64,000 bases of DNA from Candidatus Shapirobacteria bacterium (GTDB lineage Bacteria; Patescibacteriota; Microgenomatia; UBA12405), in NCBI GenBank assembly GCA_041661765.1, contig JBAZTV010000002.1:203279-267278 (forward strand), written 5' to 3'. The notes under the pieces are model-generated. The model saw only the letters and a list, made by a program, of their open reading frames with translations, was not told where the DNA came from and ran no database searches. Shown here piece by piece: positions 6,534 to 63,600 of this stretch (position 1 is the first letter of the stretch; every line of letters begins with the position of its first letter). Both the position numbers and the translations under genes were made by a program.

Positions 6534-6640
6534 ACCAAGTTTAAATATCTAAATCTTATTTCTGGTATAATAGCTAAGTATATTTATTCGGCCTCCTAAA
6601 TAATTCGCTTTTATTTTTTAACGATATCTACTTAAATTTT

Positions 6641-43201: not shown

Positions 43202-43220
43202 TTTAAACTATTAGAAGCCG

Positions 43221-43264
43221 CCCTGTCAAGGGAGGTGGCCCCGCGGCGCGGGGCCGGAGGGTTT
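43221..43264 (+). repeat. GC-rich palindromic element, family 1 copy E (intergenic, between tRNA-Pro and tRNA-Leu)
   Basis: CCCT-GTCA-AGGG hairpin, then a perfect 9-bp GC hairpin GGCCCCGCG-G-CGCGGGGCC (43237-43255), then a GGAGGGTTTGTG tail. Compare copies A-D and F. Confidence 0.6.
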
Positions 43265-43422: not shown

Positions 43423-43480
43423 TCTCCCTTTTTTAAGGGGAGATGATCCCGCCGCGTCGGGATCAGAGAGGTTTTGTTTG
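43423..43480 (+). repeat. GC-rich palindromic element, family 1 copy F (intergenic, upstream of tgt)
   Basis: CTCCCTTTTTTAAGGGGAG hairpin, then the GATCCCG-CCGCGT-CGGGATC hairpin (43444-43463), then an AGAGAGGTTTTG tail. Same architecture as copies C and E. Confidence 0.5.
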
Positions 43481-45588: not shown

Positions 45589-46623
45589 ATGAAAAATAGC
45601 TCAAAAACATTCTTAAGTATCAACTTTGGCTGTCGTGTTAATTCAGCTGAAACTAATCAATGGTCCCAAATTCTAATTAATCAAGGACATACCCCTCTTG
45701 TCAAAGAGGGGCAGGGGAGATTGGATTTAATCTTAGTTAATACCTGTTCCATCACCAAAAAAGGAGATTTAGAATCACTTGGCAAAGTCCGATTCCTTCA
45801 TCAAAAATACCCACAGGCTAAAATTTTAGTTACTGGTTGTGCAAATCTTGAAAAAATAAAAAACATTCCCAATGTCTTTATTTATCAAAATAATCAAAAA
45901 GAAGAATTATTAAAAGACTTAAATTCTTCTTATACTCCAAAAATAAAAGACAAATTTAGCCACACCAATCGTTTTTTATTAAAAATTCAATCAGGTTGCA
46001 CTCAATTTTGCTCCTATTGTATCGTCCCTTTTAGGCGCCAAAATTTATGGTCTCTAGAAATAAATAAAGCAGTTGAAACTGTTCAAAAAGCAATTAAAGA
46101 TGGCTATCAAGAAATTATTATTACCGGAGTTAATATTGATCAATACCAATATAATTTTTCTGATCTAATTAAAAACATATTAGAACAAACTGATGTAAAA
46201 TTAATTAGTTTTGGATCTATTCCTTTAAATTGCATTGACCAAAAATTTATTAATTTACTTAAAAAATACCCCAACAGAATTTCCAATTTTCTCCACATTC
46301 CCATTCAATCCAGCTCCAACAAAATCCTCAAACTCATGAACCGCCCTTATGACTCCAAAAAAATTATAAATACTTTTAATAAACTAAAAAAATTACCTCT
46401 CTCCTTCGGAACCGACATCATTGTTGGCTTTCCTACTGAAACTGAAGATGATTTTCAAAATACTCTTAAAGTTTGTAAAAACATTGGTTTTTCCAAAATT
46501 CACACTTTTAAATATTCACCTCGTCCCAACACTAAAGCTAAAATTATCCACAACACCAATCCTAAAATTTCCAAAGAGACATTAAAATCTCGTTCCCAAC
46601 AAATCCGAGATCTCATAAAATAA
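45589..46623 (+). CDS. Radical SAM methylthiotransferase, MiaB/MtaB-like (no obvious TRAM domain)
   Basis: UPF0004 N-terminus (INFGCRVNSAETNQW...LILVNTC) and radical SAM CxxxCxxC (SGCTQFCSYC). Contains family 1 element copy A in-frame. Confidence 0.65.
   Translation: MKNSSKTFLSINFGCRVNSAETNQWSQILINQGHTPLVKEGQGRLDLILVNTCSITKKGDLESLGKVRFLHQKYPQAKILVTGCANLEKIKNIPNVFIYQNNQKEELLKDLNSSYTPKIKDKFSHTNRFLLKIQSGCTQFCSYCIVPFRRQNLWSLEINKAVETVQKAIKDGYQEIIITGVNIDQYQYNFSDLIKNILEQTDVKLISFGSIPLNCIDQKFINLLKKYPNRISNFLHIPIQSSSNKILKLMNRPYDSKKIINTFNKLKKLPLSFGTDIIVGFPTETEDDFQNTLKVCKNIGFSKIHTFKYSPRPNTKAKIIHNTNPKISKETLKSRSQQIRDLIK
45692..45728 (+). repeat. GC-rich palindromic element, family 1 copy A (in-frame in the miaB-like gene; encodes PLVKEGQGRLD)
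   Basis: CCCCTCTT-GTCA-AAGAGGGG followed by CAGGGGAGATTGGATTT. Confidence 0.65.
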
Positions 46624-47667: not shown

Positions 47668-48765
47668 TTATCTCCCAAAATACACTTCCATCTCATCAAA
47701 CACTTGAAAAGTAAATGAAACTTCCTGTCCCGGAAATCTTGCATTTTTACCCCAAATATAGGATTTATTAACATCATCTCTCATTTGATTTGAAATTCTT
47801 TTTAAAACATCATCCAATGTACAATTATTTTTAAAAATTAATGGATCTTTATAATCTGCCTCTGCTGACCTTTCTTCTTTTAAATAAACTCTTACTAACC
47901 CTAACCCTTTCCATATTTTTTCTTTAAAATCATCAACTCCCACCCCTCTATTTGCATTCATTAACACCAAGTCCCTCTTGTCAAAGAGGGATTTAGGGAG
48001 ATTTTTAATTAAATCAATTTTTGTCACTACTTCCACTGACGGCATATATTTTATTGACTTTGACATAGCATCAACCAATTTATCAATTCCTTCGACTTTT
48101 TCACCTATTTGAATAATTGCATTACCTAAACCCATTTCTTTAGCAACTTCTGTCACTGTTTCTTTTTCAAAAGATTTATATGGATCAATTACCTGAATTG
48201 ACCCTTTATGTGTCCTGTGAATTGAAATTTTAGATGGCCTGGTATTTAACCTCATTCCTGATCTATAAAGCTCATCTTCCACTTGTTTCAACCATTGAAT
48301 CCTTTTAATATCAGTCATTAAAACTACTAAATCACTAGCTCTTATAACTGATAAAACTTTTTTTCCAAAACCTTTATTTTTAGCTGCACCTTCAATAATT
48401 CCCGGCAAATCCAAAATCTGAATTTTAACTCCCTTATATTCCATCATTCCCGGTACCACTCCCAAGGTTGTAAAGTCATAATTTCCAACTCTCGACTCAG
48501 CATTTGTCACCGCATTCAATAAAGTCGATTTACCCACACTTGGCAACCCCACCAACACCACTGAAGCATCACCTGAATGTTTAATTGCATATCCAACACC
48601 ACCGCCACCACCTTTTAAATTACCACCATTTAACTCATCATTAAGTTTGGCTAATCTAGCTTTCATTATTCCATGGTGATGTTCCGTCCCTTTATGGTAC
48701 GGCAAATCCCGAACTTCCTTCTCTATTCGAGAAATCTGCATTTTAATAATTTCTTCCTTAGTCAT
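47668..48765 (-). CDS. Obg/DRG-family GTPase with C-terminal TGS-like domain
   Basis: G1 LVGLPSVGKSTLLN, G3 DLPGIIEGA, and a C-terminal RVYLK TGS-like region. Contains family 1 element copy B in-frame, in reverse orientation. Confidence 0.65.
   Translation of the reverse strand: MTKEEIIKMQISRIEKEVRDLPYHKGTEHHHGIMKARLAKLNDELNGGNLKGGGGGVGYAIKHSGDASVVLVGLPSVGKSTLLNAVTNAESRVGNYDFTTLGVVPGMMEYKGVKIQILDLPGIIEGAAKNKGFGKKVLSVIRASDLVVLMTDIKRIQWLKQVEDELYRSGMRLNTRPSKISIHRTHKGSIQVIDPYKSFEKETVTEVAKEMGLGNAIIQIGEKVEGIDKLVDAMSKSIKYMPSVEVVTKIDLIKNLPKSLFDKRDLVLMNANRGVGVDDFKEKIWKGLGLVRVYLKEERSAEADYKDPLIFKNNCTLDDVLKRISNQMRDDVNKSYIWGKNARFPGQEVSFTFQVFDEMEVYFGR
47973..48006 (+). repeat. GC-rich palindromic element, family 1 copy B (in-frame within the minus-strand GTPase gene; encodes KSLFDKRD)
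   Basis: CCCTCTT-GTCA-AAGAGGG followed by ATTTAGGGAGATTTTT. The 18-mer is identical to copy A. Confidence 0.65.
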
Positions 48766-56508: not shown

Positions 56509-56536
56509 TGTAGAGACGCATCATGATGCGTCTCCC
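56509..56536 (+). repeat. GC-rich palindrome, family 2 copy 1 (TGTAGAGACGCATCATGATGCGTCTC), 13 nt upstream of the thrS ATG
   Basis: Perfect 22-nt palindrome at 56513-56534. It shares the 11-mer TGTAGAGACGC with the copy at 58314. Confidence 0.65.
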
Positions 56537-58314: not shown

Positions 58315-58342
58315 GTAGAGACGCCATGCATGGCGTCTCTAC
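58315..58342 (+). repeat. GC-rich palindrome, family 2 copy 2 (GTAGAGACGCCATGCATGGCGTCTCTAC), 9 nt after the thrS stop
   Basis: Perfect 28-nt palindrome. Not followed by a T-run. Confidence 0.65.
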
Positions 58343-60763: not shown

Positions 60764-61789
60764 ATGAATCAAAACTTGGAAGAAATTAAAAATCAATACC
60801 AAGCCAAAATTACCGACCTCAAAACCGACAAAGGATTAGAATCTTTAAGAATTGAATTATTTGGCCGCAACGGTTTGATTAATGATTTATTTTCCAAAAT
60901 TAAAGAAATTCCTAATGAAGGAAAAAAACAATACGGCGCCGATCTTAATCAATTAAAAACCGAACTAGAAGAATTATTTGTAGAGAAGCGCCGCCGGCAC
61001 GTCTCTACATCAAACCAAACGTCTCTACCTACAAAAGAAAACAAAAATATTTTTTCTTTACCAAAAATCGGCCATCTTCATCCTATTACCCAAACTGAAC
61101 GCGAGTTAAACGAAGTTTTTCGAAAACTTGGTTTCTCTGTTTACAATAGCCCCGAAATTGTCACTGACGAATTTAATTTCGAACGACTTAATGTTCCTCA
61201 AAATCATCCTGCCCGCGACATGCAAGACAGTATTTATATCAAAGAGCCAGAATACTTACTTCGTACCCAAACATCCACTATCGAATCATATTTATTAAAA
61301 GCCAAAAGCCAAGACCTGCCTATTCGTGCCGCTTTTCCAGGATCTGTTTTTCGAAATGAAAAAGTTAACCGTAGTAACCATTTCGTCTTTCATCAATATC
61401 AAGCTGTTGTCGTTGATAAAAATGTCACTATGAAAGATTTAATCGGTACCATGGATTTAATGTTTAAAACTCTCTATAGTTCTGACGTTGTCGTTCGTTA
61501 TCGCTGTAAATATTATCCTGAAGTCGAACCAGGTGTCGGTCCCGACATGCAATGTTTCAGTTGTCATGGAAAAGGTTGTCCACTGTGCAAATATGCTGGT
61601 TGGATTGAAATGGGCGGCAGTGGCATGATTCATCCTAAAGTTTTAGAAGCCGCCGGCATCGACTCTAAAATTTGGTCCGGGTTCGCTTTTGGCATGGGTC
61701 TCGACCGTTGGACCATGGCCCAAAAAAATATTAAAGACATTAGAACATTAATGGGTGGAAATTTAGCCTATAAACCCAACGAATTATGA
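60764..61789 (+). CDS. pheS: Phenylalanyl-tRNA synthetase alpha subunit
   Basis: Class II motifs in the C-terminal half (FRNE..., GMGLDRW). Contains family 2 element copy 3 in-frame. Confidence 0.85.
   Translation: MNQNLEEIKNQYQAKITDLKTDKGLESLRIELFGRNGLINDLFSKIKEIPNEGKKQYGADLNQLKTELEELFVEKRRRHVSTSNQTSLPTKENKNIFSLPKIGHLHPITQTERELNEVFRKLGFSVYNSPEIVTDEFNFERLNVPQNHPARDMQDSIYIKEPEYLLRTQTSTIESYLLKAKSQDLPIRAAFPGSVFRNEKVNRSNHFVFHQYQAVVVDKNVTMKDLIGTMDLMFKTLYSSDVVVRYRCKYYPEVEPGVGPDMQCFSCHGKGCPLCKYAGWIEMGGSGMIHPKVLEAAGIDSKIWSGFAFGMGLDRWTMAQKNIKDIRTLMGGNLAYKPNEL
60980..61030 (+). repeat. Palindrome, family 2 copy 3 (GTAGAGAAGCGCCGCCGGCACGTCTCTAC plus a second ACGTCTCTAC), in-frame in pheS (encodes VEKRRRHVSTSNQTSLPT)
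   Basis: Imperfect 28-nt palindrome (12/14 arm matches) with a 10-nt direct repeat 11 nt downstream. Confidence 0.55.
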
Positions 61790-63600
61790 AATTAATCTAT
61801 TCTCAACTTCAAAAATTCTTACCCGATCTAAAAATCGAACCACAACAACTCCGCGACGACTTAACCATGATCGGCCATTTTACTAATTTTTTTGAAGAAA
61901 TCGACAGTGAAATCGTTTTTGATCTAGACATTAAAGTCAACAGGGGAGACTGTCTCGGCTATTACGGCCTCGCCAAAGATTTATCCGTTTTTTACAACAT
62001 AAAATTAATTTCTCCCTTTCGTCAAAGGGAGATGCCCGAAGGGCAGAGGGATTTAGAAATTCTTCCAATCCAAATAACTACTGACAACGTCAAACGAGTC
62101 ATGGCTGTCAAAATTTCAAATTTTAAAAATAACTCTTCTCCTCAATGGCTCCAAACATTTTTAAAATGTCACAACACTAAATCCATCAATACTCTTGTTG
62201 ATTTAACCAACTACATCATGTTTTTATATGGCATTCCAAATCATGCCTTTGATACGGCCAAATCAACTGACAATTTAATTTGGGAAATGAATTCCAAATT
62301 CAAAGAATTCATCAGCCTCGACGGTTCCAAACTTTTTTTAGACAATAAAATTTTAATGATTAACAATCCCGACAAAACCCTCAGTCTTAGTTTTTGGGGA
62401 GGGGAGTCTTGTGCTATTGACTTAACCACTACTGAAACTATTATTGAATTAGCTATCTATGATCGCACTACTGTTCGCCAAAACAGCCGTCAATTAAAAT
62501 CCGTCACCGAAGCCAGTATTCGTCTTGAAAAAGATCTTGACTGCGAATTAATTCCCACCGCCTTTAATCACTTAGTTAATTTAATTTTAGAGAATTGTGG
62601 CGGCCAAATTAATTCTCAAATTTTTGATCATTATCCTCAAAAAACGAATTTACCTCAAATCGAATTTGACCCTAAAAAACCGTCCCTAGTTTCCGGCATC
62701 GACATCTCCACCAATTTTTCCCTCGACTGTTTAAAAAGATTAGACTGTCAAATAAACGGTTCAACTATAACTCCTCCAAGTCTCCGCAAAGACATTACTA
62801 TTGAAGCCGACCTAATCGAAGAAGTCATCCGTTTTTGGGGTTACCAAAAAATCCCTACCAATCAACCCTTAACTTTTAAAGAAATTTCCGACATTACTCC
62901 TAAAGAAATTTATTTAATCGAAAATCTCAAAGATCAATTAATTCAGCTCGGCTACGACGAAGTTTTAACCTGGCCTTTAATTACCAATTCAATTGATGAA
63001 AAAACTGTTATTAAAACCCAAAACAGTATTAATTCCGAGGCCGTCTATCTTCGTCAATCTTTAATTCCATCTCTAGTCCAACAACTCGACCAATATAATC
63101 GTTTTAAGTTACCAGAACCACAGTTTTTTGAAATCGGCAAAGTCTTTTTCAAAGATGGAAATAATTTTATTGAAAAAACCGCCTTAGGAATTTATAATTA
63201 TGATTCAGAAAAATTACAATTAGACATAAAAAATCTTAACCTCCCCCTTGTCAAAGGGGGACCGAGGGGGATTGATAACTTTGTCGAAATAATTTTAGAC
63301 GAATTACTTAAACCAGAAAAATATATCCCTAATCAGCAACAAAATAACGCCATCGAACTTACTTCACAAATAATTACTCTTGATGCCAATATTACTCTCG
63401 ACAACAAAGAAGATCCAATAAAATTAATTTTAAAATATTCTCAAATCATTAGTTCTAAATATCTTTGGAAATTAATCATCACTGATATTTATCAAGATCT
63501 TAAGACCAATAAATATCGCTATACTTTCCAAGCCTCTTATTTTAATTTGGATGACAAAACCGCCAAATCAATTCACCTAAAAACTTTTGATTTAATTTGA
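61786..63600 (+). CDS. pheT: Phenylalanyl-tRNA synthetase beta subunit (short form)
   Basis: B3/B4 and B5 region with a C-terminal anticodon-binding-like domain. 604 aa. Overlaps pheS by 4 nt. Contains family 1 copies C and D in-frame. Confidence 0.8.
   Translation: MKLIYSQLQKFLPDLKIEPQQLRDDLTMIGHFTNFFEEIDSEIVFDLDIKVNRGDCLGYYGLAKDLSVFYNIKLISPFRQREMPEGQRDLEILPIQITTDNVKRVMAVKISNFKNNSSPQWLQTFLKCHNTKSINTLVDLTNYIMFLYGIPNHAFDTAKSTDNLIWEMNSKFKEFISLDGSKLFLDNKILMINNPDKTLSLSFWGGESCAIDLTTTETIIELAIYDRTTVRQNSRQLKSVTEASIRLEKDLDCELIPTAFNHLVNLILENCGGQINSQIFDHYPQKTNLPQIEFDPKKPSLVSGIDISTNFSLDCLKRLDCQINGSTITPPSLRKDITIEADLIEEVIRFWGYQKIPTNQPLTFKEISDITPKEIYLIENLKDQLIQLGYDEVLTWPLITNSIDEKTVIKTQNSINSEAVYLRQSLIPSLVQQLDQYNRFKLPEPQFFEIGKVFFKDGNNFIEKTALGIYNYDSEKLQLDIKNLNLPLVKGGPRGIDNFVEIILDELLKPEKYIPNQQQNNAIELTSQIITLDANITLDNKEDPIKLILKYSQIISSKYLWKLIITDIYQDLKTNKYRYTFQASYFNLDDKTAKSIHLKTFDLI
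62012..62056 (+). repeat. GC-rich palindromic element, family 1 copy C (in-frame in pheT; encodes SPFRQREMPEGQRDL)
   Basis: CTCCCTTT-CGTC-AAAGGGAG, then TGCCCGAAGGGCA hairpin, then GAGGGATTTAG. Confidence 0.6.
63243..63279 (+). repeat. GC-rich palindromic element, family 1 copy D (in-frame in pheT; encodes PLVKGGPRGID)
   Basis: CCCCCTT-GTCA-AAGGGGG followed by ACCGAGGGGGATTGATAAC. Confidence 0.6.

Follow-up and report, generated by a model that had tools for sequence, protein, structure and literature searches.

The window analysed here is a 64,000-nt stretch (positions 203,279 to 267,278 of contig JBAZTV010000002.1) of an AT-rich Candidatus Shapirobacteria genome (candidate phyla radiation, CPR; Microgenomates) with a G+C content of 26-37% per 2 kb. 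It carries six copies (A to F) of a short G+C-rich repeat, referred to here as family 1, two of which lie inside the essential gene pheT. pheT overlaps pheS (60764-61789) via ATGA, and its product contains the Pfam domains B3_4 (103-272), B5 (292-353) and PheRS-beta CLM (376-475). The PheT, MtaB and GTPase proteins of the window have their best matches in metagenome-assembled genomes (MAGs) named Candidatus Shapirobacteria, and the GTPase is 100% identical to that of an NCBI MAG (P0241). The gene and the repeat copies are as follows.

pheT, 61786..63600, + strand: open reading frame (ORF) of 604 amino acids (aa) for the PheRS beta subunit; hosts copies C and D
Copy C, 62011..62054, + strand: long form, sense, encoding SPFRQREMPEGQRDL (aa 76-90); pyrimidine arm Y TCTCCCTTT (62011-62019), loop CGTC (62020-62023), purine arm R AAAGGGAGA (62024-62032), inserted hairpin TGCCCGAAGGGCA (62033-62045), mirror arm R' (A)GAGGGATTT (62046-62054)
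Copy D, 63242..63275, + strand: short form, sense, encoding PLVKGGPRGID (aa 486-496); Y TCCCCCTT (63242-63249), loop GTCA (63250-63253), R AAGGGGGA (63254-63261), loop 2 CCG (63262-63264), R' AGGGGGATT (63265-63273), GA (63274-63275)
Copy A, 45692..45722, + strand: short form, CCCCTCTT-GTCA-AAGAGGGG-CA-GGGGAGATT; sense in an MtaB/MiaB-like radical-SAM gene (45589-46623), encoding PLVKEGQGRL
Copy B, 47972..48003, + strand: short form, TCCCTCTT-GTCA-AAGAGGGA-TTT-AGGGAGATT; antisense in a DRG/Obg-like GTPase gene (47668-48765, - strand), read as LPKSLFDKRD
Copy E, 43218..43264, + strand: imperfect long form, CCGCCCT-GTCA-AGGGAGG-T-[GGCCCCGCGGCGCGGGGCC]-GGAGGGTTT; intergenic, tRNA-Pro/tRNA-Leu
Copy F, 43423..43475, + strand: imperfect long form without the GTCA loop, its mirror arm GAGAGGTTT having one mismatch; intergenic, upstream of tgt

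Each of copies A to D consists of a pyrimidine arm (Y), a GTC-containing loop, a complementary purine arm (R), then either a second loop or a hairpin, and then a further purine arm (R') that is the mirror image of R and not a direct repeat of it, with TTGA coming 3' of R' (example arms are Y = CCCTCTT and R = AAGAGGG). The first loop is GTCA in A, B and D and CGTC in C. The second loop is CA in A, TTT in B and CCG in D, and its place is taken by a whole extra hairpin in C, E and F, copies E and F being of the two-hairpin type. Stems are 8 nt long in A, B and D and 9 nt in C. Four of the six copies (A-D) are inside genes and two (E and F) are intergenic, and all six are on one strand, the C-rich one. 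The initial annotation had placed two sense copies inside the single essential gene pheT, and this is confirmed: C and D lie on the same strand, 1.23 kb apart, and the reading frame across the core that they share is not the same in both (CGT CAA AGG in C and GTC AAA GGG in D). It had missed the mirror third arm and the spread of the family across many phyla and viral contigs.

The core CCCYYTTGTCAAARRGGG, with up to 2 mismatches, matches the window four times, at A (45693), B (47973), C (62014) and D (63243), compared to an expectation of 0.04 matches from 100 dinucleotide shuffles of the window. A finder that used the architecture only (Y stem, loop, R stem, loop and mirror R stem, with 7-nt perfect stems) returned exactly A, B, C and D, all on the + strand, and gave a mean of 0.01 and a maximum of 1 on 200 dinucleotide shuffles. 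A general repeat search of the window missed the family, the copies being too short and divergent. Copies C and D are no assembly artefact, since an independent ENA assembly (ERZ27249449, k141_1097422; L003) has the same pheT with both copies present, and copy D is 100% identical in another pheT (L145) that is itself 69% identical overall. The independent pheT (L003:10001-11830) equals the window over 1814 nt except for one G missing in the G5 run of copy D (63256-63260), which frameshifts the gene (called as a 501-aa protein, P0002); this loss is either a homopolymer error or real slippage within the repeat.

Third-arm covariation and the class of the repeat

Across all fetched loci, a perfect mirror third arm, with G*G, A*A and T*A matches allowed, was found within 70 nt for 78 of the 105 unique GTC-loop hairpins. 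As controls, the same 105 hairpins gave 6 third arms in the direct orientation and 2 in shuffled downstream sequence. When the arms were interrupted by A (n = 39), 25 third arms were perfect mirrors and 2 were perfect direct repeats. The triads counted were C.G*G (469), T.A*A (139) and T.A*T (97), with 16 invalid. The hairpin and third-arm variants switch together: GAGGGG goes with GGGGAG in A, B and many CPR copies, GGGAGA goes with AGAGGG in C and in two other loci (L163 and L175), and GGGAGG goes with GGAGGG in copies from Clostridia and Peribacteria, so that across phyla a change in the hairpin comes with a matching change in the third arm. These switches alter the peptide, from PLVKGG.RGI to PLVKEG.REI. 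Because the arm switches change the peptide, two frames are used and copy B is antisense, selection acts on the DNA and not on the encoded peptide. What defines family 1 is a nucleic-acid structure.

By their sequence layout, copies A to D have the architecture of a predicted class II (purine-motif) intrastrand DNA triplex, the class known as BoxC, PIT or TM. In all four, a Y stem, a loop of 1-6 nt and a complementary R stem of 6-15 nt are followed by a mirror R' that gives a valid triad at every position, without exception. The second loop of 1-6 nt of the ITxF definition fits A, B and D, and C, E, F and other long forms hold a hairpin of 13-22 nt instead. Copy C has a DNA fold of -12.5 kcal/mol (z = -4.4) from a tool that models duplex pairing only, the triplex being predicted from the order of the arms. 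We infer that the triplex may form in single-stranded DNA in vivo.

The best-described member of this class, TM_ECO, has the form CCCTCNCCC-N3-6-GGGNGAGGG-N3-GGGNGAGGG, with TTA (type A) or CCG (type B) as its second loop, and its oligonucleotides form a stable triplex by circular dichroism and nuclear magnetic resonance; it occurs 3610 times across 262 proteobacterial genomes (Holder et al. 2015, PMC4666352). In E. coli K-12 it is always intergenic and at times in inverted pairs, its loci are unusually variable within 1-500 nt, and it is never linked with transposases, integrases or nearby mobility genes (PMC4666352). Elements of the same class were earlier named BoxC and PIT (potential intrastrand triplex) elements (Hoyne et al. 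2000, cited in PMC4666352). The window family shares with them the order of Y stem, loop, R stem, short second loop and second R stem, the C.G*G and T.A*A/T triads, and the second loop (CCG in D and TTT in B, compared to CCG or TTA). Like TM_ECO it is G+C-rich, multi-copy and highly conserved, sometimes forms inverted pairs and has hypervariable surroundings, and no associated transposase was found near 119 loci or among the Pfam families listed for the window. It differs in having stems of 7-10 nt, GTCA conserved as the first loop and a tail of GATTGA in place of the CCCTCNCCC consensus, in long forms with a whole variable hairpin in the second loop, and in CPR hosts of ~32% G+C; and whereas TM_ECO is intergenic in E. 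coli K-12, four of the six window copies and dozens in orthologs are in frame within essential genes. With its other stem sequence, conserved GTCA loop and four of six copies inside ORFs, it is not TM_ECO/BoxC sensu stricto. The window family is therefore of the same class as TM_ECO/BoxC and not of the same family. BoxC/PIT/TM repeats have been known for decades, and the E. coli reports describe them as strictly intergenic. What is new here, in a class that is itself known, is that the triplex-class architecture occurs in frame within the essential genes that a CPR bacterium carries, and that its turnover is cassette-like.

The window family also resembles REP/REPIN elements (PMC3116915; GTAG/CGTC-tagged REPs, PMC3733652) in its short G+C-rich hairpins and occasional inverted doublets. 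However, REPs are extragenic by definition and mobilised by RAYT, whereas family 1 is intragenic and has a third mirror arm and no terminal GTAG; its CGTC/GTCA sits in the loop and not at the element end as a REP tag would. An identity as a MITE (miniature inverted-repeat transposable element) was rejected: A-D have no terminal inverted repeat or target-site duplication, and empty-site comparisons give replacement and not insertion with duplication. Rfam in E-value mode, run on seven element-bearing loci, returned no family for the element, and the sole match to reach gathering score was a group I intron in L075. In the full texts of a paper library, the core sequence turned up in nothing but unrelated primers from yeast and plants, and a search on CPR and palindromic repeats gave nothing relevant. 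Rickettsia palindromic elements (RPE), reportedly described by Ogata and colleagues in 2000, are in-frame repeats inside protein-coding genes. They are similar in being selfish palindromic repeats in frame in genes that include essential ones, in a reduced genome, tolerated as surface segments; they are longer (~100-150 bp), are not known to have a triplex-type mirror arm and add a whole peptide segment instead of replacing a loop. They have no sequence relation to the window family and belong to a different phylum. RPE identity was rejected, the elements being 31-44 nt long and the host Candidatus Shapirobacteria; the in-frame habit alone is common to both. Cyanobacterial small dispersed repeats (SDR) and heptameric STRR repeats, reportedly treated by Elhai and colleagues in 2008, are hairpin repeats of ~20-30 nt that, like the window family, are present at orthologous sites in some genomes only, and no sequence relation to the window family was established.

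Permissive sites in PheT

The positions of the copies were compared with 120 PheT orthologs, all named Candidatus Shapirobacteria. PheT residues 43-460 of the window align with residues 158-587 of S. haemolyticus PheT (2rhq_B, phmmer), so the window protein lacks the ~115-residue B2 domain of solved bacterial PheT structures. Its AlphaFold model matches S. haemolyticus PheRS beta (Foldseek E=2.6e-26); the model is moderate (mean predicted local distance difference test score, pLDDT, 63.7) and was used solely to place loops against secondary structure. Copy C falls in the poorly conserved B1-B3/4 linker, in a predicted coil (70-101) with pLDDT <50, and copy D between helix 474-484 and strand 499-503, with pLDDT <50 at 490-495. 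The ortholog alignment is hypervariable at the C site, at the D site and at a third spot after residue 326, and is otherwise 78%-conserved. The initial annotation's view that the encoded peptides are tolerated as loops thus holds for both copies, neither of which aligns to conserved PheT core residues in orthologs. Its view that a PheT of 604 aa is unusually short does not hold within the lineage. Orthologs are 594-638 aa long with a mode of 596 aa, which is also the modal length without an element; each pheT element allele adds 12 nt (4 aa) net compared to the native allele that it replaces, and since the window gene has two elements, its 604 aa equal 596 + 4 + 4. The protein is short compared to E. 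coli PheT, yet typical for its own lineage.

Among the 117 full-length PheT, 33 have a triplex-type segment, 25 a REP-like segment, and 66 neither. The triplex-type segments have a patchy phylogenetic distribution over five positions (the pheS-pheT junction, the B1 domain, and sites 1, 2 and 3), and different orthologs hold different repeat-derived peptides at the same pheT codons. Short triplex elements are read as PLVK[EG]G.R[EG]I and LPALSREGLGKG, and long ones as SPF.QREM..GQR.L, SLSSRGDV...TEGF and PFSREVRPQDGVGF. A 28-nt GTAG...CTAC palindrome is read in two frames (VETFCKTSL and RRDVLQNVST), and a tandem heptamer, (ACGATCT)n, as TIYDLRS. Similarly, MtaB orthologs alternate between TKTNP, LVKEGQGRL, ATIYDLP and CRDVLQNVST at the copy A site. 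Decayed copies (SLVKEESSEIE and SPFHKCEISKEQKNL) occur in orthologs as well. Odd G+C-rich peptides of CPR proteins such as PLVKGGxRGI, SPFxQREM, VETxxxxSL and RRDVxxxVST are repeat read-through and not functional motifs, and such read-through is to be considered in CPR annotation, alignment trimming, phylogenomics and structure prediction.

A triplex element lies exactly at the pheS-pheT junction, immediately 5' of the pheT ATG, in five loci (L126:778, L127:9965, L146:2090, L175:9961 and L178:19). All pheT copies are in the sense orientation. Stop-codon filtering as the cause of this was rejected, since two of the three frames are open in both orientations. GC skew is negative throughout all 64 kb of the window; a replication-strand bias was dropped as unproven, the copies outside pheT being 9 versus 4 with respect to GC skew, which is not significant, and the pheT copies not being independent.

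Proposed turnover between lineages

In a neighbour-joining PheT tree built without the variable sites, the window PheT groups with three orthologs that have a different element at site 1 and the native sequence at site 3 (P0001, P0003 and P0006), and with three that are native at both sites (P0004, P0007 and P0017). Copy C is absent from the closest orthologs and present in P0008, P0009, P0027, P0031, P0065 and P0117, and the same C and D alleles recur in far more distant branches. Sliding-window identity and alignment delimit a tract around each pheT copy.

Cassette tract around copy C, 61966..62055, + strand
Cassette tract around copy D, 63172..63290, + strand

The D tract is 85-90% identical to distant element-bearing loci (L145, 69% identical overall, and L124, 78%), but its identity to L165, the closest of the element-free alleles (82% overall), is only 46-63%. 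Of the 23 codons lying upstream of D, 7 are different in L124 and 17 in L165. The C tract is 85-95% identical to L124 and L173 and 78-89% to L138, which are 75-78% identical overall, and 31-67% identical to the element-free L165. In pheT, ~55 nt of flank co-varies with element presence across distant lineages.

A genome whose identity to the window reaches 97.3% across 3.4 kb (L203) is without A and B, and the patches at these sites are replaced; at the copy A site, a 39-nt patch in L203 replaces a 27-nt one. Copy A is 100% identical in L204, which is 84% identical overall. Copy B is absent from both L203 (96%) and L204 (86%), and since these two agree with each other against the window over ~75 nt (~47935-48010), copy B was gained on the window branch, with clustered flank changes (~13 changes in 37 nt compared to a 97%-identical background). 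The B-type allele is otherwise present only in the distant P0272 and P0273 (orthologs 76-77% identical). No target duplication and no terminal inverted repeats were found at copies A to D. Taken together, the shared flanks and replaced patches in these alignments point to short-patch recombination and not to simple insertion, and we infer that the flanks came to be shared by recombination and not by site-specific insertion on several occasions. The initial annotation had proposed spread by homology-independent insertion or gene conversion; conversion or allelic recombination is favoured between lineages, and simple insertion is not, since native sequence is replaced and flanks of ~55 nt co-vary. 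A 97%-identical genome without two of the four copies, together with dozens of orthologs with alternative cassettes, is a natural gain and loss series, in which the footprint of movement (replacement patches and shared flanks) can be read at nucleotide resolution; because of this series, the movement of triplex repeats is testable with population metagenomes.

The explanation that we consider probable is a triplex-class repeat family that is tolerated in loops and exchanged as cassettes between lineages. In this Shapirobacteria genome, which is AT-rich and dense in genes, the repeats would persist inside genes at any surface linker that tolerates changes in length, provided that the copy there is in frame and free of stops; the ribosome would read them through as 10-15 extra loop residues, and PheT would offer at least five permissive positions. 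Between lineages, the element with ~40-100 nt of flank would travel as a cassette by short-patch homologous recombination, which may be allelic gene conversion after DNA uptake. The replacement of the resident loop-coding segment would then give the patchy distribution and the 'replacement' footprint. Our best guess for the first copy at a new site is that it may arise by template switching or ectopic conversion at structure-stalled forks. Local hypermutation induced by the structure may contribute as well, above all at copy B.

It is unlikely that family 1 is a non-autonomous transposable element, REP/REPIN- or MITE-like, inserted independently of homology by an enzyme that acts in trans (such as an HUH nuclease of the RAYT/IS200-IS605 type with single-stranded hairpins as its substrate), with identical sites across lineages reflecting target specificity. 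Dispersed, highly similar hairpin-bearing copies within and across phyla and in viral contigs are consistent with such an element, as are inverted module pairs around ~150 nt in a betaproteobacterial MAG, which resemble REPIN/MITE ends, the common strand of the six window copies, and the GTAG-tagged REP-like family that coexists at the same sites. However, family 1 has no target-site duplication, terminal inverted repeat or conserved GTAG tag, native sequence is replaced and flanks change along with the elements, and orientation relative to GC skew outside pheT is not significant. Furthermore, an all-against-all BLASTP of 2066 ORFs around 119 cross-phylum loci found no shared gene and only ordinary paralogous families (the recurring neighbours being histidine kinase/response regulator pairs, TctC and AMP-binding enzymes), and no RAYT, HUH nuclease or transposase was found near these loci or, as weaker evidence, among the 25 Pfam families listed for the 63 window ORFs, no whole genome having been searched. 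The absence of mobility genes near TM_ECO agrees with this (PMC4666352).

Less probable still is that structure-driven instability (fork stalling, error-prone repair and slippage) accounts for the pattern, the flanks being local hypermutation and the patchiness repeated loss or decay of an ancient insertion. The hypervariable surroundings of TM_ECO loci in E. coli, the dense changes beside copy B with no clearly matching donor allele, the single-nucleotide change that L003 shows in copy D's G5 run, and the decayed copies all suggest instability. Against it, the flank haplotype at pheT sites 1 and 3 is common to distant element-bearing lineages and is not random, copy D is 100% identical in a lineage with 69% overall identity and copy A in one with 84%, and copy B is a gain and not a loss by outgroup comparison. 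An RNA or peptide role, either an mRNA hairpin tuning translation or stability or a selected functional PheT loop, would suit the folding of hairpin 1 as RNA (-14 to -19 kcal/mol), the sense orientation of every pheT copy and the recurrence of PLVKxGxRxI, but it is very improbable because an RNA duplex leaves the mirror third arm unexplained and purine-motif triplexes do not form in RNA (PMC4666352), copy B is antisense, C and D give unrelated peptides from different frames, compensatory DNA changes alter residues, 66 of the 117 orthologs have neither segment type and close relatives lack C and D, and intergenic copies exist.

Several points weigh against the exchange of triplex-class cassettes as the explanation. 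TM_ECO in vivo was without protection from dimethyl sulfate (Holder et al. 2015, PMC4666352), and copy C and the other long forms depart from the class definition in the length of the second loop. Of the 26 family-1 matches across 1.03 Mb of Shapirobacteria DNA centred on pheT, 17 are in the gene or directly at it; this concentration speaks for the explanation, but it includes orthologous copies that partly share descent and are not independent, and it is indicative only. At pheT site 3, a required target sequence or co-adaptation of the helix before it could account for part of the flank sharing. At copy B, the P0272/P0273 flank is not obviously closer to that of the window, and because there is no clearly closer donor flank, this patch may be structure-induced hypermutation. 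Finally, the genome scan for the hairpin core took one genome per species with a GTCA loop forced, so its at least 119 stretches are evidence of breadth and not a census of taxonomic range or copy number.

A broader idea, which we raise only tentatively and regard as rather doubtful, is that cross-phylum GTCA-loop triplex mini-elements with an optional variable hairpin are a distinct kind of mobile or recombinogenic DNA without an encoded or linked transposase, and that in CPR bacteria the DNA structure nucleates short-patch gene conversion, giving the surface loops of the essential proteins PheT, MtaB and DRG-like GTPase a cassette-like turnover. If this were true, loop-coding segments would pass from species to species far more quickly than the gene around them diverges.

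Taxonomic range and neighbouring repeats

The groups among the matches listed in the genome scan are Shapirobacteria, other Patescibacteria, Peribacteria, Betaproteobacteria, Geobacterales, Nitrospirota, Clostridia, Bacteroidota, Elusimicrobia and cyanobacteria. In nearly all stretches listed, the hairpin is followed by an optional variable hairpin and then by a GGGGGATT tail. Viral contigs from IMG/VR (55 stretches, L205-L259) gave 56 GTCA-loop matches, 28 of them with the full third arm, so phages or prophages carry the GTCA-loop element too. In the Betaproteobacteria MAG RH-23may17-1255 (L017, L020, L038, L078 and L082), inverted pairs of triplex modules, each of them with a second hairpin that is variable and compensatory, enclose ~150 nt of sequence conserved in part and form ~290-nt MITE-/REPIN-like units on many contigs. 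In Floridaenema flaviceps (L021:21-130), a tandem array of the hairpin unit CCGCTTCCCCCCTTTGTCAAAAGGGGAATTTGAAT with a 35-nt period lies at a contig end.

A second repeat family, distinct from family 1, is present in the window beside pheT.

Second repeat family in pheS, 60980..61008, + strand: GTAG...CTAC palindrome GTAGAGAAGCGCCGCCGGCACGTCTCTAC, read in frame as VEKRRRHVST

This family (GTAGAGACG...CGTCTCTAC) looks like a GTAG-tagged REP, and further copies lie at 61020-61028, 56513-56534 and 58316-58341, the last two around thrS. In orthologs, pheT sites 1 and 3 and also the MtaB site hold canonical copies of it (GTAGAGACGTTTTGCAAAACGTCTCTAC). The (ACGATCT)n heptamer is read as (S)TIYDLRS at the same permissive codons of MtaB and PheT orthologs (L130:4815-4860 and 6542-6590; L138:10957); it resembles the cyanobacterial STRR repeats. 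The window also contains 19 tRNA genes between 4717 and 54211, with clusters at 38.5-38.9 kb and 50.2-50.5 kb. In Candidatus Shapirobacteria UBA2283 (L075:7639-7898), a contig with a long-form triplex element also has a group I intron match at the Rfam gathering score (50.5 bits, E=6e-10).

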